From an uncultured Deinococcales bacterium (GTDB lineage: Bacteria > Deinococcota > Deinococci > Deinococcales > JAAFIG01), in assembly GCA_964244895.1 (NCBI GenBank), contig CAXTKV010000128.1, forward strand, positions 1 through 15,275: 15,275 nt of DNA, read 5' to 3'. How positions within the stretch are numbered: position 1 is the stretch's first letter; every line of letters starts with the position of its first letter. The translations under genes and the position numbers were made by a program. Of this stretch, positions 3 to 14,110 are shown piece after piece. Below the pieces are notes generated by a model, which saw nothing but the letters and a program-made list of their open reading frames with translations, searched no databases and had not been told where the DNA came from.

Positions 3-1516
<1,514 letters not shown>

Positions 1517-1519
1517 TCA

Positions 1520-1569
1520 AGAACACCGTCCTGGACGCGAATCTTAAATTGCGCTCAGGACGGTGTTCT
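1520..1569. repeat. 50-bp palindromic REP-like element, family A, copy 1
   Basis: AGAACACCGTCCTG (1520-1533) and CAGGACGGTGTTCT (1556-1569) form a perfect 14-bp inverted repeat around an AT-rich centre, 3 nt after the 1516 stop. Confidence 0.9.
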
Positions 1570-1589
1570 CGCGCCTCGAGCGTGAACGG

Positions 1590-1595
1590 TAGACT
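1590..1595 (+). promoter_or_regulatory. -10 box (TAGACT) of a probable leaderless transcript
   Basis: TANNNT 6 nt before GTG 1602, with no Shine-Dalgarno. This architecture is established in Deinococcota. Confidence 0.7.
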
Positions 1596-1601
1596 CAACA
1601 C

Positions 1602-2132
1602 GTGATCGTCTGCGGCAGCACCAACCCGGCCAAAGTCGAACCCGTCAGGAGCGTTTTCGCCAGCCTGGAACCCGCACTCGAGGTCGCGGGCGTCAACGTT
1701 CCTTCGGGCGTGCCGGATCAACCCATCGGTTGGGATGAAACCGCGCTGGGCGCGAGAACCCGCGCCAGAAACGCTCTGGCACAACCCGGTGCACGGTATG
1801 GCATCGGGCTCGAGGGCGGGGTGCTGGTGAACGCGGATGGCGCGTGGCTGGTCAGCATCGCCGCGATTGCGCGCAGCGACGGGCTCGAGGGGCTGGCCTG
1901 CGGCGGGATGCTGCTGCTGCCGCCGTCCGTCGCGGCTCGAGTCGAATCCGGCGAGGAACTGGGGCACGTGATTGACGCCCTGGCAGGGGAGACGGGCACG
2001 AAAACGCGGGGCGGCGCGATCGGTTTCCTGACCAACAATCGCTACTCCCGGCGCGAGATGTGGGCGGGTGCGCTCGAGATGGCGCTCGCACCGATTCTGA
2101 CGAGTGCCATCTACGCGCGTTCGAGATTCTGA
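1602..2132 (+). CDS. yjjX: Inosine/xanthosine triphosphatase (YjjX/DUF84 family)
   Basis: 176 aa. Motifs GSTNPAK, VPSGVPDQP, ETALGARTRA, GIGLEGG, ELGHVID and GGAIGFLT. Confidence 0.88.
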   Translation: MIVCGSTNPAKVEPVRSVFASLEPALEVAGVNVPSGVPDQPIGWDETALGARTRARNALAQPGARYGIGLEGGVLVNADGAWLVSIAAIARSDGLEGLACGGMLLLPPSVAARVESGEELGHVIDALAGETGTKTRGGAIGFLTNNRYSRREMWAGALEMALAPILTSAIYARSRF

Positions 2133-2165
2133 CGCTGGGGTCTCGAGTCGAGGCCACCGACGCGG

Positions 2166-2171
2166 TAAACT
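2166..2171 (+). promoter_or_regulatory. -10 box (TAAACT) of a probable leaderless lysZ transcript
   Basis: TANNNT 7 nt before ATG 2179, no SD. Confidence 0.7.
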
Positions 2172-2178
2172 CCGGCTC

Positions 2179-2982
2179 ATGATTGTCGTCAAGGTCGGCG
2201 GTTCAGAGGGTATCAATTACGACGCGGTCTGCGACGACATCGCGGACTTGTGGCAGGCGGGCCAGAAGCTCGTGCTGGTTCACGGTGGCAGCGCAGAAAC
2301 GAACCGAGTAGCGGAGTTGCTGGGCCACCCGCCCAGGTTCGTGACTTCCCCGTCCGGGTACACGTCGCGGTTCACGGATCGGGAGACGCTGGAAATCTTC
2401 GAGATGGTCTACTGCGGCAAGCAGAACAAGGGCATCGTGGAGCGTTTGCAGCGCCAGGGTGTCAACGCGGTGGGATTATCCGGTCTGGATGGTCGCATCT
2501 TCGAGGGCAAGCACAAGGATTCCGTGCGCATCCTCGAGGATGGCAAGACCAAAATCTTGCGCGGCGATCACACGGGAACCGTCGAGAAGGTCAACACCGC
2601 CTTGCTCGAGTTATTGCTTGAAAACGGCTATCTGCCCGTGCTGACGCCTCCCGGAGTGAGCTTCGAGGGCGTGGCCGTCAACGTGGACGGCGACCGGGCG
2701 GCGGCGGCGGTGGCGGTGGCGTTGCGCGCCGAAGCGTTGTTGCTCCTGTCAAACGTGCCCGGATTGCTTCGGGATTTCCCGGACGAGGCCAGCCTGATCC
2801 GGGAAATTCCGGCGCGGGACGTGGAATCGTTCATGGATTTTGCCAAGGATCGCATGAAGAAAAAAGTGTTGGGGGCAGCTGAAGCCGTACAGGGCGGCGT
2901 GCGGCGCGTGATCTTCGGGGATGCGCGCCTGGAAAAGCCAGTCAGTCGGGCGCTCGAGGGACGGGGAACGGTCGTGAGTTGA
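2179..2982 (+). CDS. lysZ: [LysW]-aminoadipate kinase (LysZ, ArgB family)
   Basis: The true start is ATG 2179 (MIVVKVGGSEG), giving 267 aa. Motifs LVHGGS, SPSGYTSRFTD, GLSGLDG, NVDGDRAAA, LSNVPGLL and RMKKKV. Confidence 0.92.
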   Translation: MIVVKVGGSEGINYDAVCDDIADLWQAGQKLVLVHGGSAETNRVAELLGHPPRFVTSPSGYTSRFTDRETLEIFEMVYCGKQNKGIVERLQRQGVNAVGLSGLDGRIFEGKHKDSVRILEDGKTKILRGDHTGTVEKVNTALLELLLENGYLPVLTPPGVSFEGVAVNVDGDRAAAAVAVALRAEALLLLSNVPGLLRDFPDEASLIREIPARDVESFMDFAKDRMKKKVLGAAEAVQGGVRRVIFGDARLEKPVSRALEGRGTVVS

Positions 2983-3308
2983 TGGTGGCTTGACTCGATC
3001 ATCTGAAAATTGGAGCGCGCTGATTGAGCGTATTGGCGAACGTTGCTCGCATAAAGCGTGAATCGCCATCCCGGACGATCAACAACGTGTTTCGGATGAC
3101 GTGCCCGTCGACGCTGATTCAATTTGTGAGATTCCATACGGTACGTCGTGATGAATCTGTACACGAGACCATTTCATCTTCGGTTATGCTTGCCCACAGA
3201 CCAGTAACCAAGGACGGTTCAACCCATGGAAATGAGCGTTCGAAAAGGGGATAGGGAGGGTTCTGAGCGTCATCTCGTGCGCTTCAGTCCGACCGGGGAG
3301 GAGCGCGC

Positions 3309-6300
3309 TTGATCGACATGTTTGACATGGCGCTCGAAGCGCTCGAGGGTGTTCTCAGCCAGAAAGCGGCGCGTTCGTGCCTCGAAGCTGGCCTGAGCGT
3401 GCAGGGAAAATCCATCGACACGGCCTCGCTCGAAGATTACCGGGCGGCGCTCAGATCGAACGTCTTCCGGCAGTTGCAGGTCGTCATGCCCGCCACGGCG
3501 GCGGCGCAGTTGATCCGCGAGGTGGAGTTTCAGCTCGAGCAACTCGATAACGAACGCAACGAAACCGATGCGCGCCGCGATGGCAAGGCGGTCGTGCCGC
3601 AAACGATGGTGGACGAGACCAAATCCACCGCAATCCGCGATCCCGACTTGCTGGCGATGGCGGGTTCAAACCTGTTGACGCTCAACTTGCGCTCGCTCGG
3701 CAGTTTGTCCGTGGAATTCGGTGACGTGCTGTTCGCGGAACGCGACCTGAAACTCGAGGTGCGCACCATGCGCCGCACGCTCGACGAGGGCCAGCACATC
3801 GAGCGCGACAAAATAGAGAATCTGCGCGACACGCTGCGTTTGCGCCGCAATATCTTGCTGGTGACGCAACGCGAGCAGCTCGGGACGCTCGACCACCAGA
3901 TCCGCGAACTCTCGCAACGCATCGTGGTGCCGCGCGAACTCGAGGCCCGTCTCGATTCGGCGCATCGTTTGCTGGCGTCCGGCACGTTGGCGACCTCCGA
4001 TTTGCGCCAGATGGAACGTCTGGTCGAGAACGTCGCGGGTGCGCCGCACGATCAGGTCGCCGTCGCATCGCACGGCTCTGGTGAAATTGCGCCTGAATTG
4101 ACGCTCTCGCCTGAACCCGCCGCGTTGGAACCGATCATCTCGGAACCCGCCTCGATGCTCGCTGCCGAGGTGACGTCGGTGTTCGCGTCAGAAGCCCAAA
4201 TAGAGCCCGAAGCCGAATCGGAACCCGTGCTGGTGATCGAATCCCAGACGGTAACGATCATCTCTGACGCGCCAGAACTCGATCAGATCGAGCCGCAGAT
4301 TGCACCTGAAATCCTGCCCGAACGCGCCATCGATACGGGGCTCGAGTTCGATCCGGTCTGGGCTTCGAGCGATCCCGCGAGTTCCATCGCGGTTCCAGCC
4401 GTCGAGACGGGACTCGGTGCGTTCGATTCCGTCGAGCGTTTCGAGCCCGAACCCGTCAAGTTTGACGCGCCCCGCTCGGTCTTCGGATCGTGGGACGCTT
4501 CGGTCATCGACACGCCTACAGAAGCCCTGCCAGCGGAAGCAACCTCAGGGCTCATCCATCAGGAACTCCAGGTTCAGGATTCGACATCTCAGGTTCTCGG
4601 CACAGACCATTTCGAGCCGGTCGTGTCAATCACGGAACTGAGCGACTTCGCGCCCGCTACCGCGCCGGAAGCTGATCCGGTCATGGCTTCCGTCCTGCGA
4701 TCCTTCGATCACGCGCCACAAACCGAGACGCCCCAGTCGATCCTCGAAACCACCGAGTCCGCCGCGACCGAACCGGAAGCTGAATTCGGCGTGGATTTCG
4801 ATCAGGAACCCGAGCCCTCGGAATTTGCCGAATCGGTCAGCCCCAGGACGGATGCGGAAGTGTTCGCATCGCAAGCGCACGAAGAAGCAGAAATCGTCCA
4901 ACACGCGGAAACGCGGGTTGCGAATCTCGAGCCTGAGTACGAGCTTGAAGTCGCGCCAGCGCCCGAAACCGAAGTTGCGCATGAACGCGCAATCAAAGCT
5001 GAAATGGCGCAGCCGATGGCGCACGCGCTCGAGTCTGAGCCCGAATTATCGGCGCACGAAGCTGATCAGCCGATCACCGTGGAACCCGAAGCAGCGCTGC
5101 AACCCGAGGCGTCCGAACGCGACGAACCAGCTGAAGCCGCGACCGAGATCGGAGCTGCGCACGGACATCCGCACGAAACCGCGCCGGAACTCGAACCCCA
5201 GATCGCGGAGGTTCACCACGAACCCGCGCTGGAACCAGTACTGGAACCGATGGATACGGTCACAGGTGCGAGCGCAGAAGAAGAATCCGAACACGCCGAG
5301 GCTGTTCCGACCCAGGTGAACGAAGAGCATCCTGAAGTCGATACGGTCGTGGAAGCCGAGATTGAACCAGCTGCACTTGAGCTCGAGCCCGCGATGTCTG
5401 AAACTGCGCCGTCCGAATCCGCACTGTCCGAGCCCGCAATATCCGAAGTAGTGCTGTCCGAAGTAGCGCTGTCCGAACCCACAATGCCTGAAGCTCCGGC
5501 GTCCGAACCCGAAGTCGTCCTCGAGCCGGAAGCCATCGAAGCGACCACCGAAGCTGAACCCTCGCTCGAGCCCGAGATGCTCACGCCTGAACCAGCGATG
5601 GCCGAGGCCAACGAAGCTGAGCCGGAAGCGGTATTGACGCCCGCCGAGGATCACCCGGAATCTGCCGCGACAGCCATCGAAGAACCCGAGTCAGAAACCG
5701 CCTTGACGCACGTGGAACCCGCACCGATCATCGAGCCGGATCGCGGCGCGTGGTACGCGCCGAGCAGCGCCTTCGCGCAACCCGTCAACCCGACCACCGC
5801 GCATCACGAACCGCCCACCGCACCGTCCTACATCACCGCGAACTCAGGCTTTGCCCTGAGGGAGGAGACCCAAGTGGAAAACGAGATTGTTGAACACACC
5901 GACGCCCCAATTCCGACGCCGCAACCCGCCACCAACGGCGAGGAGGGCATCGTCTGGTTGGCATCCGCTCGCCGCGACGCCTCGAGCCGCAACGCTGACC
6001 GGTTGCGCAAGGACCCGATGGCCCTCAAGCCCGGTCGCCTCGAATCCGAGCACGGTCTGGCCGAAGCCGAAGCGCACGTTCTGGAAGCCAAACTGCACGC
6101 CGCCTGCGACGGTGCGGGACTCCAGCACCGCCGCCTGGAAGCCGAGTTCGCGCTGAAGGTCGCTCAGGCCGCCGTGGAACTCGCCAGCAAACGTGTCGAA
6201 GCCGTCAGCCTGCGCGAGCGCTACGGCGCGGCCAGCAAAGCGGAACTCGAGCACGCGCAACTCGAACTCGAGCGCGCACAGGAAGAACTGGCGTTGGCCA

Positions 6301-6821
6301 AACTCTCAGAAGGCGTGGTGCAGAACGTGCCCGTCAACGGTGAGCCGAACGTCAACCGCGTCGAAGTGGACGCCGAACGCCTCAAGGTCGCGCTGCAGTC
6401 CACCCCGCAAATGCTCTCCGCGCGCCACACGCTGGAACGCGCCGAACTCGAGCTGGCCATCCGCGACAACCCGGCCTACCCGGCTTCTGAAATCGCCTCG
6501 GTGCGCAACGTGGTGAACCAGGCGCGCGAGCACTTCTCGACCCTGGAGGCGACCCTGCACGCCGAACTCGAGGCCGCGATGGCTTCCATGCGCTACTACG
6601 GTGCGCGCATGGGCGAGAAGGATTCCGCCTGGAAGACCGCCGAGAGCGAACTCCACCACGCCGAGGAAGGCGTCCGTCAGGGCTTCGTGGCTTCATTGAC
6701 GCGCGACGAAGCGCAACTCAAGGCGCTCCGTGCGGACATGGAGAAGCGCAAGGCGTCCCACAAGTACCTCGAGGCCGTGCATCGCCTCCAGTGCCTGACC
6801 CATCAGTACATGCTGGGCTGA
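3309..6821 (+). CDS. Large multidomain protein: N-terminal helical region, ~620-aa acidic E/P/A linker, C-terminal TolC/outer-membrane-efflux-like helical domain
   Basis: 1170-aa ORF with SD GGAGGAG (3297-3303) 5 nt before TTG. The last ~280 aa have two OEP-like repeats (ERYGAASKAELEHAQLELERAQ; VRQGFVASLTRDEAQLKALRA...YLEAVHRL) and a RDNPAYP turn like Deinococcota TolC proteins. No signal peptide. A terminator follows. Confidence 0.8.
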   Translation: MIDMFDMALEALEGVLSQKAARSCLEAGLSVQGKSIDTASLEDYRAALRSNVFRQLQVVMPATAAAQLIREVEFQLEQLDNERNETDARRDGKAVVPQTMVDETKSTAIRDPDLLAMAGSNLLTLNLRSLGSLSVEFGDVLFAERDLKLEVRTMRRTLDEGQHIERDKIENLRDTLRLRRNILLVTQREQLGTLDHQIRELSQRIVVPRELEARLDSAHRLLASGTLATSDLRQMERLVENVAGAPHDQVAVASHGSGEIAPELTLSPEPAALEPIISEPASMLAAEVTSVFASEAQIEPEAESEPVLVIESQTVTIISDAPELDQIEPQIAPEILPERAIDTGLEFDPVWASSDPASSIAVPAVETGLGAFDSVERFEPEPVKFDAPRSVFGSWDASVIDTPTEALPAEATSGLIHQELQVQDSTSQVLGTDHFEPVVSITELSDFAPATAPEADPVMASVLRSFDHAPQTETPQSILETTESAATEPEAEFGVDFDQEPEPSEFAESVSPRTDAEVFASQAHEEAEIVQHAETRVANLEPEYELEVAPAPETEVAHERAIKAEMAQPMAHALESEPELSAHEADQPITVEPEAALQPEASERDEPAEAATEIGAAHGHPHETAPELEPQIAEVHHEPALEPVLEPMDTVTGASAEEESEHAEAVPTQVNEEHPEVDTVVEAEIEPAALELEPAMSETAPSESALSEPAISEVVLSEVALSEPTMPEAPASEPEVVLEPEAIEATTEAEPSLEPEMLTPEPAMAEANEAEPEAVLTPAEDHPESAATAIEEPESETALTHVEPAPIIEPDRGAWYAPSSAFAQPVNPTTAHHEPPTAPSYITANSGFALREETQVENEIVEHTDAPIPTPQPATNGEEGIVWLASARRDASSRNADRLRKDPMALKPGRLESEHGLAEAEAHVLEAKLHAACDGAGLQHRRLEAEFALKVAQAAVELASKRVEAVSLRERYGAASKAELEHAQLELERAQEELALAKLSEGVVQNVPVNGEPNVNRVEVDAERLKVALQSTPQMLSARHTLERAELELAIRDNPAYPASEIASVRNVVNQAREHFSTLEATLHAELEAAMASMRYYGARMGEKDSAWKTAESELHHAEEGVRQGFVASLTRDEAQLKALRADMEKRKASHKYLEAVHRLQCLTHQYMLG
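5391..5510 (+). repeat. Eight imperfect in-frame 15-bp tandem repeats encoding xxSEx pentapeptides
   Basis: gcgatgtctgaaact / gcgccgtccgaatcc / gcactgtccgagccc / gcaatatccgaagta / gtgctgtccgaagta / gcgctgtccgaaccc / acaatgcctgaagct / ccggcgtccgaaccc. Confidence 0.8.
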
Positions 6822-6835
6822 AGATTCGTGCATCC

Positions 6836-6871
6836 AAAGGGCTCGAGTCAGTATCTCGAGCCCTTTTTCTT
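6836..6871 (+). terminator. Rho-independent terminator
   Basis: AAAGGGCTCGAG-tcagtat-CTCGAGCCCTTT followed by TTCTT, 14 nt after the stop at 6821. Confidence 0.88.
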
Positions 6872-7025
6872 GTGTCAGGTCATCTGGCCTGATATCAAAT
6901 CCGATTTGATTTGAAGAGGTATTTTGATCGAATCAAAACCGCGTTCTGGCGTCGGATACGAATTTCAGATGAAATTCCAGGCTCTGACGAGGCTTTTGCG
7001 CGGGAGCTTCTCGCCGTATGCTCGA

Positions 7026-7077
7026 GAAACACCGTCCAGCACGCATATTCTAAACTGCGTGCTGGACGGTGCGCTCG
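7026..7077. repeat. Family A palindromic element, copy 2
   Basis: CACCGTCCAGCACGCA (7030-7045) and TGCGTGCTGGACGGTG (7056-7071) form a perfect 16-bp stem with a 10-nt AT-rich loop. Confidence 0.9.
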
Positions 7078-7187: not shown

Positions 7188-7499
7188 TCAGTTCGTCTGG
7201 GTGCTGGAACTGATCTGCATCACGGCTTCTTCGATCGTGCCGAAGTTCGCCTCGTAGCGCCGCAGGTTCTCCTCGAGCGCGCGCAGGAAGGCTTTGGCGT
7301 GGCGCGGGTTGGTGACGATCCGGCTGACGACCAGCGCGCTGGGTTGACCGGGATAGGCCGCCGCGAAATCGAACACGAATTCGTTCGGGCTGTGCGAGAT
7401 CACCGCAAAATTCGCGTATTTGCCCTGCGCGGTCTCTGGGGAAAGCTCGAGCCGAACCTCGTTGGTCGTCGGAGCCTCGGCTGCATTCTCGGGAGGCAT
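7188..7499 (-). CDS. DUF3467 domain protein
   Basis: 103 aa. GKYANFAVISHSPNEFVFDFA, VVSRIVTNPRHAKAFLRALEENLRRYEANFGTI is the characteristic DUF3467 pattern. The start overlaps the upstream stop (TGATG). Confidence 0.88.
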   Translation of the reverse strand: MPPENAAEAPTTNEVRLELSPETAQGKYANFAVISHSPNEFVFDFAAAYPGQPSALVVSRIVTNPRHAKAFLRALEENLRRYEANFGTIEEAVMQISSSTQTN

Positions 7500-7864
7500 C
7501 AGGCTTTCGCGGCTTCCGCGACTTGCGGCAGGTACTTCTTGAGCTGGAAGCGCACGCGGCCCAGGTTCTGGCTGGAATCGAGCGTCGCCAGGATGCTGCC
7601 CTCGCCTGGCCCGAGCGGGGCGAGCAGCACGGGACCTTCCTCGAATTCAATCATGACCTGGCTGACATCACCCTTGCCGAAGAATTCGGCCAGCGATTGA
7701 CCGGCGACCAGGCTCGAGGCGGCCACGCCACCCAGAAAATCCAGGTCGATTTCCGTGTCCGGCCCGGTGGCCGATTCGATCACGAAGCCGTCGTCGCCGA
7801 CGAGCGCGACGGAAGTGAGTCCTTTGATCTGAACAATTTCCGTGAGAATCGCGCGCAAGTCCAT
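7499..7864 (-). CDS. Roadblock/LC7 (MglB-like) domain protein
   Basis: 121 aa. GLTSVALVGDDGFVIES, QVMIEFEEGPVLL and NLGRVRFQLK. SD GAGG at 7871-7874. Confidence 0.88.
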   Translation of the reverse strand: MDLRAILTEIVQIKGLTSVALVGDDGFVIESATGPDTEIDLDFLGGVAASSLVAGQSLAEFFGKGDVSQVMIEFEEGPVLLAPLGPGEGSILATLDSSQNLGRVRFQLKKYLPQVAEAAKA

Positions 7865-7983
7865 GTCGTACCTCGTTCGGTTGAAGTGTCAGGTTCGAGT
7901 GCTGAAATCAGATGTGGGGATCGAAGCTGATGCTCGAGAAATGACGCGTTATCGGGATGAAATCGCGTATTGAACGCGATTGA

Positions 7984-8331
7984 TCAAGCCAATTCTTGCA
8001 CGAGCTGCAAAGCCAACCGGGCCATTTCGACCTGGATGGCGCGCAGGTCAGCGCCGCGTTGAGCCACGACCGTCAGGGAATAATTCGTGCCCGCCCGGAT
8101 CGTGATCAGCTCGAACTGGTCGGTGGTCACGCTGAAGCGGAACAGGCGTTGCGCGCCCAGACTCAGGCTGGAATTGGTGGCAACCCGCACGATGGACGCG
8201 GTTTCGGCGGCCAGCATCTGGATTTGTTCGGGTTCGCCGATCGATTCGATCTCGAGCCCATCGTCGGACACGAGCACCGCCGAGAGCAGGTGCGCCGTGC
8301 CGTCGAGCGCGTTGAGCCATCGGAGCGCCAT
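7984..8331 (-). CDS. Roadblock/LC7 (MglB-like) domain protein
   Basis: 115 aa. SAVLVSDDGLEIES, MLAAETASI and ADLRAIQVEM. SD GGAGG 8 nt before ATG. Confidence 0.82.
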   Translation of the reverse strand: MALRWLNALDGTAHLLSAVLVSDDGLEIESIGEPEQIQMLAAETASIVRVATNSSLSLGAQRLFRFSVTTDQFELITIRAGTNYSLTVVAQRGADLRAIQVEMARLALQLVQELA

Positions 8332-8403
8332 CTCAGCGACCTCCGGTCGGACGAGAACCTGCGGTGAGCTGGGTCAACGGGTGCTCCTTGAGGGCTGGCG
8401 CGC

Positions 8404-8766
8404 TCATCCGACGATCTCGCGGAGTTGTCTGACCGCCTGGTCGCCCAACAGACGAGCCTTGCCGATGTTGCCTTTCGGGTCGAGCATCAGCGTCAAGAAG
8501 AATTCGTCGTTGACCTGCCGGGTGTAACCGAGCATCTGTTCGGCGCTGACCAGCACCTCGCGCACCTGTCCCGCGTTCAGGCTGGACGAGTACGCGGTCT
8601 TGGCGTTCCTGAGGATGTTCGAGTGTTCCGCGATGACCGTCGAGAGGTTCAAGCGGGCTTCGACGGCGTGCTGTTCGACCAACAGGCCGTCCATACCGCC
8701 CAGAGCGGCACCGATTGCGCCGTCAACGCCTGTGACCAGATTGGAAAGGATTTCTTCGAGTTCCAC
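8404..8766 (-). CDS. Roadblock/LC7 (MglB-like) domain protein
   Basis: Likely start GTG 8766 (MELEEILSNLVTGVDGAIGAALGGMDGLLVEQ...GNIGKARL), 120 aa. The ORF-track extension to 9075 overlaps the GNAT gene and does not look protein-like. Confidence 0.85.
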   Translation of the reverse strand: MELEEILSNLVTGVDGAIGAALGGMDGLLVEQHAVEARLNLSTVIAEHSNILRNAKTAYSSSLNAGQVREVLVSAEQMLGYTRQVNDEFFLTLMLDPKGNIGKARLLGDQAVRQLREIVG

Positions 8767-8774
8767 GCGAGTCA

Positions 8775-8798
8775 AGTGTACCCGAGACGCGTCTCGGG
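8775..8798 (-). promoter_or_regulatory. -10 box TACACT with an abutting perfect 18-bp palindrome (candidate operator)
   Basis: Minus strand reads CCCGAGACGCGTCTCGGG (8781-8798), TACACT (8780-8775), 8 nt, then GTG 8766. Confidence 0.55.
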
Positions 8799-11521: not shown

Positions 11522-14110
11522 GTGAAGGCCACGCCAGAATTGCTCGTCGGTTCCGCGCAGAGCGGCAAGACGCGCGAGGCCGCGCGGCGCGCCTTCGAGG
11601 TCGCGCAGTCGGGCGAACGCGCGATCGTGCTGACGCTGCCGAACCAGCGGGGTTTCTTTCTGGAACGCCTCTCCAGCCTGGGGCCGACGTTGGGCGTCGA
11701 GGTCACGAACCTTCAGAACATCGCGTACCGTTTGCTGGATCGGTTGGGCCAGAACCGCCCGGTGGTGCTCAATCCGGGCCGGGTGGCGCTGACGGCTCGG
11801 GCGCTCGAGGGCGTGCTGGAACGCGCCGTCGGCCCCGGCGAGGCGCGCTTGTACGCTCGGGCCATCGCGGAATGCAAACGCCACATGGTCGCGCCACAAC
11901 AAACCGGCGAACCGTACCAGGATGCGTTGGCGGCGGCCTTCGCGCGTTATGAGGCGATGCTCGAGTCGGGCGCAGTCCAGGATCTGGACGACGTGCGATT
12001 GCGGGCGGCGCGGTGGCTGGCCGGATCATCGATTCGGTTGAACGCGCACCTGATCGTGGATGGTTACCGCAGCTTCAACCCTTCAGAACTCATGGCGATC
12101 AAGGCGCTGTGCGACCTGGCGGAATCCAGCCTGGTGACGCTGCCGTGCGGTGCGCCGGACACGGCGCAGGACGCGTGGGCGCACCCGTTGCGGTTCGCGG
12201 AACTCGAGGCGATCGCGGATCGGTTGGGCGCGAAAGCCCGAAGGTTGAGCGCCAGAGGCAAACCCTGGGCCGGGCTGCCCGACGCGGTCACACTCGAGGC
12301 GCACATCAATCCCGTCGAGGAGGCTCGGGCGATCCTGCGGGCGATCAAACGCGCCCTGCTGGACGGTGTTCCCGCCCATGAAATGGCCGTCGTGATTCCG
12401 AACCCCGTACCGGCCCGAGTCCTGGAAGCCTTGGGGCGCGAGTACGGCGTGCCGATCGCACCTGAGACGCAGGGCAGCGCCCTCGAGACACCGGAAGGTC
12501 GCGTTCTGGAAGCCCTGCTGGGTGCGCCCGCCCGCGATTACGCGACGCGCGATCTGAGGGCGCTGGCGGTGCTGGAACCGACGCTGGCGCGGCTGGCGGA
12601 CGCGCTGGAACAATCCGGCGTCAACTCCGGCGTTCGCGCCTACCACCTGGTCAGTCGGGACGCGGAGGCGCTGAGCGCATTGGGGCGGGTGCGGGCGCTG
12701 GCGGAACCGCCCGAATCGGCCAACGCGACCGAACTGGTGGCCTGGTTCGAGCGCGTGCTGGAACGCGCCCTGCACGGTTCCGCGTTTCTGGACACGGCGC
12801 GGGTCGTGGCTCGCGAGGCGGCCAGGTTGCTCGACTCGAGCGGTGCGGATGGTGAAGGTCGGCTCGATGGCGCGATCTTCACCGACTGGGTGCGTTCCCT
12901 GCTCTCGAGCGTGCCCGTGGCGCACCCGCTCGCGGGTCGCGGCGTGGCGGTGCTGGGGCCGGAGGAAGCCAGCGGCAGGCGATTCCGGCGCACCTTCGTG
13001 ATGGGCGCGGTGGACGGCGCGTACCGCGTCGGGGACGGCGAGGATTTTTTTGCGCCCGAAGAGGATCGGATCGCGCTGGAACGCATCCTGTCCGGCGTGC
13101 CGGGATTGCCCGCGCGTCTGGTCGGCCTCGAAGATTCCTCGCTTTACGACGTGCTGACCCGCGCGGACGAGGCCGTGACCGTGACCTACCCTCGCGCGGA
13201 ACGCGGCTCGAGCTTGCGCCCGCACCCCAGGCTCGCGATGCTGAACACGCCAACTTTGGCGATGCTGAACACGCCAACTTTAGCGATGCTCGAGTCGCCT
13301 CGCTCGCACGGGGTCATTCCCGTCCCGACCGCCAGCCCGTTCGAGCTGCTGGCCGCGACCGCCGAACGCGAACCCCACGAAGCCCGCGCCCCGTGGCGCG
13401 TCCGACCGCGCCGAGCCGAGCAAGCCGCGACCTTAGAGCGCGCCAGCGTCTGCGCGGTGCGCGCCTGGGCGGAAACCAGCGTGCCGTCACCATCGCGCGG
13501 GAACGGGTTGGTGTCCGGGGAATTGCTTCGCTCGTGGAACGCCCGCTTGCGCCGCGCGCGCTGGCGCGGCGACGATGCGAACCCGCTCGCCCTCGCGCCC
13601 GACGACCACCGCGACCGCATCCAGGCGCTCTCGCCCCGTTTCCGCGCCAGGCTCGAGGCCGAACTGGACGCCCGCGTGCCGCGCCCGCGACCCAGCGAGG
13701 TACAACTCGGCTACAAGGCCAGCCTGGATGGCCTCGAGATCGTGCTGGATGGCGTGCGCTTCCGCAAGAACCGCGACGATGACGTGATCGCCGTCGAAAT
13801 CTACCGCGTGCTGGACGACCCCGCCGACGGCTACGACAGTTTCATGAAACCGGATCGTCAGCGCGAGTGGTGGTTCGCGGGCTGGTGGTTGGATCGCGGC
13901 GTGGGCGCGTCCTTCTGGGCCTGGAATCTGGAATCCGAACCGCGCCGCGTTTTCGGGCTGGACAAGCCTTACGCCCAACGCCGCCTTCGAGAGGCGATGG
14001 TTTCACTCGAGACCTCTCGGGCCGCGTTGGAATCCGGCGAGATGACGGCCAGTCCCGGTTTTCACTGCCGCGAGTGCGCCTACCGCGACCTCTGCCGGGA
14101 GGCCGTGTGA
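11522..14110 (+). CDS. addB: AddB-like subunit (helicase-like domain plus Fe-S-stapled PD-(D/E)XK-type domain)
   Basis: 862 aa. Walker A GSAQSGKT, AddB-type LIVDGYRSF, LYDVLTRA, a Cys in LERASVC and C-terminal PGFHCRECAYRDLC. It precedes an AddA-like helicase. Confidence 0.72.
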   Translation: MKATPELLVGSAQSGKTREAARRAFEVAQSGERAIVLTLPNQRGFFLERLSSLGPTLGVEVTNLQNIAYRLLDRLGQNRPVVLNPGRVALTARALEGVLERAVGPGEARLYARAIAECKRHMVAPQQTGEPYQDALAAAFARYEAMLESGAVQDLDDVRLRAARWLAGSSIRLNAHLIVDGYRSFNPSELMAIKALCDLAESSLVTLPCGAPDTAQDAWAHPLRFAELEAIADRLGAKARRLSARGKPWAGLPDAVTLEAHINPVEEARAILRAIKRALLDGVPAHEMAVVIPNPVPARVLEALGREYGVPIAPETQGSALETPEGRVLEALLGAPARDYATRDLRALAVLEPTLARLADALEQSGVNSGVRAYHLVSRDAEALSALGRVRALAEPPESANATELVAWFERVLERALHGSAFLDTARVVAREAARLLDSSGADGEGRLDGAIFTDWVRSLLSSVPVAHPLAGRGVAVLGPEEASGRRFRRTFVMGAVDGAYRVGDGEDFFAPEEDRIALERILSGVPGLPARLVGLEDSSLYDVLTRADEAVTVTYPRAERGSSLRPHPRLAMLNTPTLAMLNTPTLAMLESPRSHGVIPVPTASPFELLAATAEREPHEARAPWRVRPRRAEQAATLERASVCAVRAWAETSVPSPSRGNGLVSGELLRSWNARLRRARWRGDDANPLALAPDDHRDRIQALSPRFRARLEAELDARVPRPRPSEVQLGYKASLDGLEIVLDGVRFRKNRDDDVIAVEIYRVLDDPADGYDSFMKPDRQREWWFAGWWLDRGVGASFWAWNLESEPRRVFGLDKPYAQRRLREAMVSLETSRAALESGEMTASPGFHCRECAYRDLCREAV
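13235..13290 (+). repeat. In-frame 24-bp tandem repeat (2.3 units) encoding AMLNTPTL
   Basis: GCGATGCTGAACACGCCAACTTTG / GCGATGCTGAACACGCCAACTTTA / GCGATGCT. Confidence 0.92.

Follow-up and report, generated by a model that had tools for sequence, protein, structure and literature searches.

A gene on the forward strand of a 15,275-nucleotide (nt) stretch from an uncultured Deinococcales bacterium (contig CAXTKV010000128.1 of assembly GCA_964244895.1; hereafter the window) encodes a chimeric protein, in which two N-terminal helical domains, a very long acidic linker, and a C-terminal domain of the OEP/TolC fold without β-strands are joined in one chain. It is a real and rare fusion, of single origin as judged by sequence comparison, which reuses an OEP domain in an unusual way and whose function we infer. 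According to the reading that we prefer (probability about 0.45), the protein would be a cytoplasmic chimera, in which a self-associating, strand-less TolC-fold core displays acidic arms with docking helical domains.

Architecture of the gene and its product

The gene, its signals, and its parts are as follows (window positions; aa, amino acid residues; ORF, open reading frame).

3309 to 6821, forward strand: whole gene, a stop-free ORF of 1170 codons, encoding a chimeric protein of 1170 aa
3296 to 3311, forward strand: ribosome-binding site GGGAGGAG and TTG start codon with a 5-nt gap (anti-Shine-Dalgarno duplex, -10.8 kcal/mol)
3318 to 3560, forward strand: domain A, aa 4-84, four-helix (32% over 81 aa to G000:C92:5353-8391, on another contig of this genome, G000; model)
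3642 to 4040, forward strand: domain B, a bundle of helices, aa ~112-244 (E 2.7e-9 in a profile match with residues 310-426 of the C92 frame; model)
4041 to 5945, forward strand: acidic E/A/P linker, aa 245-879, predicted to be disordered (composition, length variability)
5946 to 6818, forward strand: strand-less OEP/TolC-fold domain, aa 880-1170, two repeats (Pfam, model, Foldseek)
6836 to 6866, forward strand: intrinsic terminator-like hairpin closing the gene (stem of 12 pairs, then a T-rich tail)

The ORF is a single gene encoding one three-part protein, and it runs without interruption through all 1170 codons, as the original prediction had described. The N-termini of homologues read MIDMFDM or MTDMFDM, matching the TTG start. 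A search for homologues with both ends in one chain found 11 other full-length database proteins, which ruled out an assembly chimera. Contigs from another run span 804-5816 (~90% alike) and 5855-6937, and no piece among the listed contigs of that run bridges 5817-5854.

The protein had been predicted to lack an export signal, which agrees with our results. Signal peptides were called by a hydrophobicity rule (an N-terminal window of at least 2.0) rather than by SignalP or DeepTMHMM, and such a window was found in none of the 12 fusions versus 57 of 62 stand-alone relatives. No hydrophobic segment of the length of a signal or membrane anchor is present in the 1170-aa protein, and Kyte-Doolittle values stay at or below 1.08 in every 19-residue window.

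The strand-less OEP/TolC-fold domain

The OEP ancestry proposed for the C-terminus was borne out by both sequence and model. Pfam OEP (PF02321) matches aa 880-1170 with an E value of 2.6e-4 and 21.3 bits, just below the 22-bit cut-off, and a family profile reaches TolC at E 2e-12; a PDB search with the single sequence of the domain gave no match. The model, built from an alignment of 20 rows, has a mean predicted local distance difference test score (pLDDT) of 94.3, seven helices, and zero strands. It matches TolC in Foldseek with an E value of 1e-6, and the superposition gives a Z score of 20.5 and a root-mean-square deviation of 4.3 over 290 aligned residues, with the first row outside the TolC family at Z 9.6. 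A generic coiled coil, which had been named as the outcome that would speak against an OEP origin, was rejected, as TolC-family chains make up all 43 listed Foldseek matches with E of at most 0.001 and the top seven VIA rows.

The barrel-strand positions of the domain are occupied by the loops DPMALKP and DNPAYP. The DP and DN/DP loops and their spacing of 71/72 residues to the tip glycines are present in 9/9 fusions, as well as in 80/81 and 79/81 stand-alone proteins, and the two long helices keep the exact family lengths of 71 and 72 residues in 9/9 fusions. Of 42 conserved hydrophobic columns, 36 are still hydrophobic in the fusions and two are deleted. Because helix lengths are exact and most of these columns are kept, the TolC fold is maintained. 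In a tree of 90 sequences, the nine fusion domains that were placed form one clade (support 0.996, stem 0.60), whose sister group the tree does not resolve.

The acidic linker

The very acidic and almost Lys/Arg-free character of the linker, noted in the original prediction, was confirmed. Residues 255-875 comprise 18.7% E, 3.9% D, 15.6% A, 12.2% P, 0.3% K, and 1.6% R, giving 22.6% D+E and 1.9% K+R overall. Among six-frame ORFs of at least 300 aa, the linker holds the longest acidic K/R-poor stretch of the genome (350 aa vs 210 aa for the next). The long arm of disordered type that had been proposed is found in 12/12 orthologues, with a length of 255-845 aa and a D+E content of 19-28%; its disorder is deduced from composition and variability rather than from a disorder predictor.

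In 8/9 close relatives the linker is only 31-42% identical, whereas the end domains reach 75-98% (N-terminal domains 75-86%, C-domain 86-98%). Short conserved islands occur inside the linker, for instance EPDRGAWYAPS (aa 809-819). As well, 15-nt tandem repeats at window 5384-5518 encode SE-x-x-x pentapeptides, which are a likely route of linker growth.

Distribution and conservation

The same three-part layout is present in 12 full-length proteins, including this one, which fall into three lineages less than 45% identical to each other, namely ten close proteins, P0014 (42% and 43% at the two ends), and P0015 (32% and 34%). Five shorter matches all start within the linker and were probably cut by contig ends. 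The original prediction had considered that relatives might encode the two ends separately, with a signal peptide on the TolC part; no such split form was found among the 8000 candidates scored per search, and the three close matches shorter than 643 aa all start in the linker. Judged from sequence, the fusion is of single origin.

In a survey of the order, in which 6-7 candidates were scored per genome, the fusion was found in 2/363 genomes, this one and G042, which belongs to another family; 0/18 other genomes of the family of G000 carry it. Because only 2/363 genomes carry the fusion, it is not a core polarity factor. Genome scans gave no loci of close orthologues, so that the DNA of the fusion comes from two genomes, G000 and G042. 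This patchy occurrence, together with the unrelated gene contexts of the two copies, might be expected of an accidental fusion or a decaying relic without selected function. However, the frame is intact over linkers of 255-845 aa, the layout is kept at ~33% identity, and the end domains are far more conserved than the linker, by which such an origin is largely excluded.

Parent subunit of the C-terminal domain

The nearest relatives of the C-domain are short OEPs of ~320-380 aa, not ordinary TolC. They make up most of the 72 non-fusion matches among 77 in a representative search and are present in 28/41 genomes (this one included) at 20-36% identity. Like the fusion, short OEPs carry short loops at the TolC strand positions, and the C-domain is colinear with them at 16-25% identity; the Pfam OEP match begins at model position 82-97 in short OEPs versus 1-18 in their long partners. 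By these sequence relationships, the C-domain descends from a short, strand-less, signal-bearing OEP subunit, encoded behind a long OEP in efflux operons of this order. Because short OEPs are already strand-less, strand loss predates the fusion. The original prediction had asked whether β-strands remain in a structural model; none do, yet their absence is no evidence of repurposing, since the parent already lacked them.

After five duplicates had been dropped from 37 loci, 32 distinct ones were left, 29 of which have a long OEP gene directly upstream of the short one; the exceptions are two loci at a contig edge and one with another gene. Over 29 long OEP sequences, the second strand region has a median of 60 residues versus 43 for the first, and the two regions read as four versus two alternating segments (18/29 shown). 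The TolC barrel has twelve strands. Because two six-stranded subunits would supply these twelve, a mixed trimer of long and short subunits at 2:1 is suggested, and the parent short subunit probably worked in such mixed trimers with a six-stranded partner.

Tandem OEP pairs followed by an adaptor gene were observed at G000:C111 and C74 (L025:811-3227, L024:8613-11365) and at 27 other loci. Atlas clusters of the short strand-less OEP, matching at 0.97-0.98, are present in Deinococcota, Spirochaetota, and Bacillota. Atlas taxa and the gene content make Deinococcota the probable source of the window.

Both fusion genomes keep intact long and short OEP pairs (two and three), which bears on whether the fusion might be exported independently of a signal and join long OEPs in the role of a short subunit whose long arm would lie in the periplasm. 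The retained tip-turn glycines and long-helix lengths would fit such a role, as would the genes for long OEPs found at other places in the two genomes. However, a short partner is already encoded for every long OEP in both genomes, 12/12 fusions lack a signal or transmembrane segment, the N-terminal domains derive from proteins without signal peptides, and no pump genes lie nearby in either genome. We regard export as very improbable.

N-terminal domains and their Roadblock-like relatives

The N-terminal model comprises two helical domains and a loose joining segment (pLDDT 91, with domain A mostly above 95). Its fold matches are generic bundles (best Z 9.2, residues 180-241), and an Atlas match at 0.78 serves as a lead only. 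A search of 46,006 six-frame ORFs with a profile of four fusion N-termini gave two further genes, both on C92 (E 3e-18 and 5e-9; next match 0.52). The proteins encoded by both of these flanking genes open with domain A, and domain B is homologous to the second helical repeat of the large Roadblock-like protein, also in its relatives. Because the N-terminus is homologous to Roadblock-associated proteins, the comparison with scaffold proteins made in the original prediction is strengthened.

The two genes belong to an unannotated three-gene operon (G000:C92:2240-8391, L023), which encodes a protein of domain A, linker, and Roadblock-like end, a 641-aa membrane protein, and a protein of domain A, helical repeats, and Roadblock-like end. 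The product of the middle gene, which has a signal-like start and hydrophobic segments at its C-terminus, was found in 116/121 sampled genomes. At 16 of the 17 loci examined, all selected by match to the fusion N-terminal profile, domain A of other proteins comes with Roadblock-like C-termini in this three-gene arrangement.

The C-terminal profile of the large protein aligns to that of the small one with a probability of 90.7 and ranks a Roadblock gene of the window second in the genome; no Robl_LC7 match was found in fusions P0001, P0011, P0014, and P0015. The parent domain-A proteins carry no signal peptides. Both fusion genomes keep both parent domain-A genes, as well as an MglA-like GTPase gene adjoining a Roadblock gene. 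Because these genes and the OEP pairs are retained, the fusion has been added to them without replacing them.

A candidate internal start at codon 856

The original prediction had allowed that an independent internal start might separate the two ends. Only a hint at the level of sequence was found in this direction, at the following site.

5860 to 5876, forward strand: candidate internal start, GGGAGGAG followed after 6 nt by an in-frame GTG (codon 856; duplex -12.3 kcal/mol)

The Shine-Dalgarno (SD) sequence and GTG there are as strong as the 5' start, and a duplex of -12 kcal/mol or lower occurs at 0.45% of 6192 internal start codons in the genome. The product would comprise 315 aa without a signal peptide. 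Nowhere else in the ORF is AGG used as a codon, and of the two GAG-GAG pairs that the ORF contains, one falls at this site. Synonymous resampling gave P values of 0.0006 with gene codons and 0.006 with genome codons; the site was picked after inspection, and the latter value becomes ~0.2 over 33 windows. Among xEExxV sites in other genes, 1/106 equals the codon-856 site. A weak promoter-like match (9/12) lies at 5703-5731. The TTG at codon 884 was rejected as the start; its duplex is stronger (-13.2 kcal/mol), but the spacing is longer, local folding is more pronounced, and a start there would truncate the first helix.

One gene may yield a long and a short form, as is known for CcmM. We consider a second, shorter product from codon 856 possible, though well short of an even chance on the sequence signals. 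A further step was also considered, in which the free 315-aa C-domain would be the main product, holding or titrating the OEP or adaptor subunits of the cell in the cytoplasm before export, with the long form linking to the Roadblock system. Besides the signals at 5860-5876, this would fit the conservation of the encoded REExxVENE in 15/15 close-group sequences, the OEP operons kept in both genomes, and the orthologue in G042, where the strongest of 47 SD/start pairs also lies 15 codons ahead of the domain. On the other side, the G042 site is unremarkable on resampling (P 0.32), the site in the window was picked post hoc, and REExxVENE, which P0014 and P0015 lack, may be a peptide motif. In addition, the N-terminal domains are strongly conserved too (75-86%), and subunits bound for export are as a rule not folded while in the cytoplasm. 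A free C-domain as the main product is unlikely in our view.

Gene neighbourhood

TolC-family genes had been expected to lie beside RND, ABC, or MFP genes, and none of these was found among the window ORFs scanned; neither G000 nor G042 has pump genes (adaptor, RND/ABC) beside the fusion. The upstream genes encode a semialdehyde dehydrogenase, an unknown membrane protein, a DUF84 NTPase, and an amino-acid kinase. The downstream genes lie on the opposite strand.

7188 to 8781, reverse strand: three Roadblock/LC7 genes, then a DUF3467 gene, without a GTPase gene (Pfam/ORF scan)

An MFS gene follows ~3 kb past this run, which recurs in 3/7 DUF3467 loci of same-family genomes. The fusion is absent from 12 neighbourhoods of the DUF3467 or kinase gene in same-family genomes. 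The link between the fusion and the Roadblock/DUF3467 operon is kept on a contig of a close relative, but not in G042, where the orthologue is flanked by SpoU methylase and NTP-transferase genes. Because this context differs, the Roadblock operon is not a conserved neighbour of the fusion.

A 50-nt palindromic intergenic repeat, similar to repetitive extragenic palindromic elements, is present at window 1522-1571 and 7028-7077, with 615 BLAST matches of at least 35 nt in the genome. The window also contains an AddB-like gene with an in-frame 24-nt duplication (AMLNTPTL) at 13235-13290.

Proposed function

The fusion protein is very probably cytoplasmic and not a channel. In the mechanism that we propose, an ancestral copy of the large Roadblock-like gene would have kept domain A and one helical repeat and dropped its Roadblock end, and this truncated copy would have been joined to a short-OEP copy stripped of its signal peptide. 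No longer a channel, the OEP part would give valency, as a dimer or trimer, and its basic first helix could perhaps act as an anchor. The acidic linker may be a spacer that sets the reach or the condensate properties, as in RomR and PopZ, and each arm would end in two helical domains docking onto the Roadblock/membrane-protein system of their origin. If made, the codon-856 product may co-assemble and leave fewer arms per oligomer. Self-association of the OEP domain is slightly favoured on the present evidence, and for docking of domain A onto its parent system the balance is about even.

Several findings weigh against this mechanism. The fusion lacks helix 1 and ~10 residues at the end of helix 4, and in all three lineages Arg stands at two conserved hydrophobic columns; together these changes could disrupt a barrel. 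The parent short subunit, judged from the tandem pairs, probably never formed homotrimers. The Roadblock match is weak, with a Robl_LC7 Pfam E value of 0.014 for the small C92 protein and none for the large one. Domain A has no Pfam, PDB-sequence, or fold match, the last being barely tested as the domain was never folded alone. Moreover, the fusion occurs in 2/363 genomes only, and the adjacent Roadblock genes are absent beside the G042 orthologue. Of the points first suggested, OEP ancestry, the lack of an export signal and of pump partners, the conservation of the fusion, and the variable arm are supported; self-trimerisation cannot be assumed from a parent that probably worked in mixed trimers.

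Compared with its parent, the fusion has lost the signal peptide and first helix as well as ~10 residues in the centre, and the first helix that remains is basic. The central segment has 80 residues in the fusions (76 in one) versus 83-95 in 80/81 stand-alone proteins, and the 20 residues before the first loop carry a net charge of +3 or +4 in 9/9 fusions, compared with stand-alone means of 0 and +1. Loss of helix 1, the central deletion, and the two Arg substitutions, all of them common to the three lineages, would also suit, with this charge and the confident monomer model, a cytoplasmic two-ended tether without polar role, in which the OEP domain is a monomeric helical rod binding another partner or a membrane. 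However, the exact long-helix lengths and tip turns fit retained barrel-type packing, and a single curved sheet of helices would leave its packing edges exposed. A monomeric rod is a rather unlikely alternative to the self-associating core.

The self-associating core can be extended to a bolder scheme, in which a Roadblock/MglA-type system captured a subunit of an outer-membrane efflux channel as a cytoplasmic trimeric hub with arms of up to 800 acidic residues, one gene yielding a long form and a short form that sets the number of arms. The parent would then be the third subunit, without strands, of a heterotrimeric (2:1) TolC channel not yet described. This scheme is speculative, and its chance of being right in full is low, a shade below that of the rod.

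Literature and significance

Neither the fusion nor the strand-less OEP partners were found described, and the short subunit was found under no published name, in the literature searched, outside which most subscription papers and supplements lie. The architecture is not mentioned in the available portions of PMC13082787, PMC8277102, PMC4316618, PMC8809574, PMC10329633, PMC10906006, and bioRxiv 10.64898/2026.03.19.712371. According to the accessible part of a survey of the TolC family, 118 signal-less OEP proteins were dropped as presumed adaptors (PMC8809574); because such proteins were removed, signal-less cases would be missed there, and the protein list of that survey may affect how new the short subunit is.

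The TolC fold is known from channel subunits that are exported. Its conserved use in the cytoplasm, if true, would mean that the α-barrel can be co-opted as a soluble assembly module, though the rarity of the fusion limits its general weight. In addition, the fusion points to two unstudied systems, the three-gene domain-A operon and the tandem OEP pairs, whose sequences suggest mixed 2:1 channels of subunits with six strands and none; both are testable in culturable relatives.

Comparison with known systems

Like TolC and other outer membrane factors, the fusion has two OEP repeats, long-helix hairpins, and tip turns. Unlike them, it lacks the signal peptide, β-strands, and first helix, has a shortened central segment and ~880 extra N-terminal residues, and has no pump genes nearby. 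Orphan tolC genes exist; it is on the signal peptide and the strands that the fusion falls outside the TolC channels.

With the short strand-less OEPs, the fusion is colinear over the whole domain and shares the same loops and the same 71/72-residue spacing. These subunits have signal-like N-termini (57/62) and lie behind a long OEP (29/32 loci), neither of which holds for the fusion, whose domains form a separate long-stemmed clade. With the domain-A/Roadblock-like proteins of C92, it shares domain A, one helical repeat, and an acidic linker, without repeat 1 and the later repeats; those proteins end Roadblock-like and flank a membrane-protein gene, whereas the fusion stands alone and ends in an OEP domain.

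Finally, as described in the sections available of the respective papers, RomR has a receiver domain at its N-terminus, a disordered region, and a helical C-terminus whose assemblies reach the size of trimers, with the Roadblock protein MglC as a binding partner (PMC10329633), and the condensates of PopZ depend on how long its linker is and on its C-terminal valency (PMC10906006). No sequence or fold homology to RomR or PopZ was found, and the fusion protein has no Pfam/NCBIfam match to a receiver domain or PopZ helix. Compared with what these sections report, its linker is several times longer and its C-terminal part is a TolC fold of 290 residues. The likeness is one of layout only, with a folded or interacting N-terminal part, a disordered linker, and a helical C-terminal part, so that the fusion would at best work like RomR and PopZ, by analogy and not by homology.

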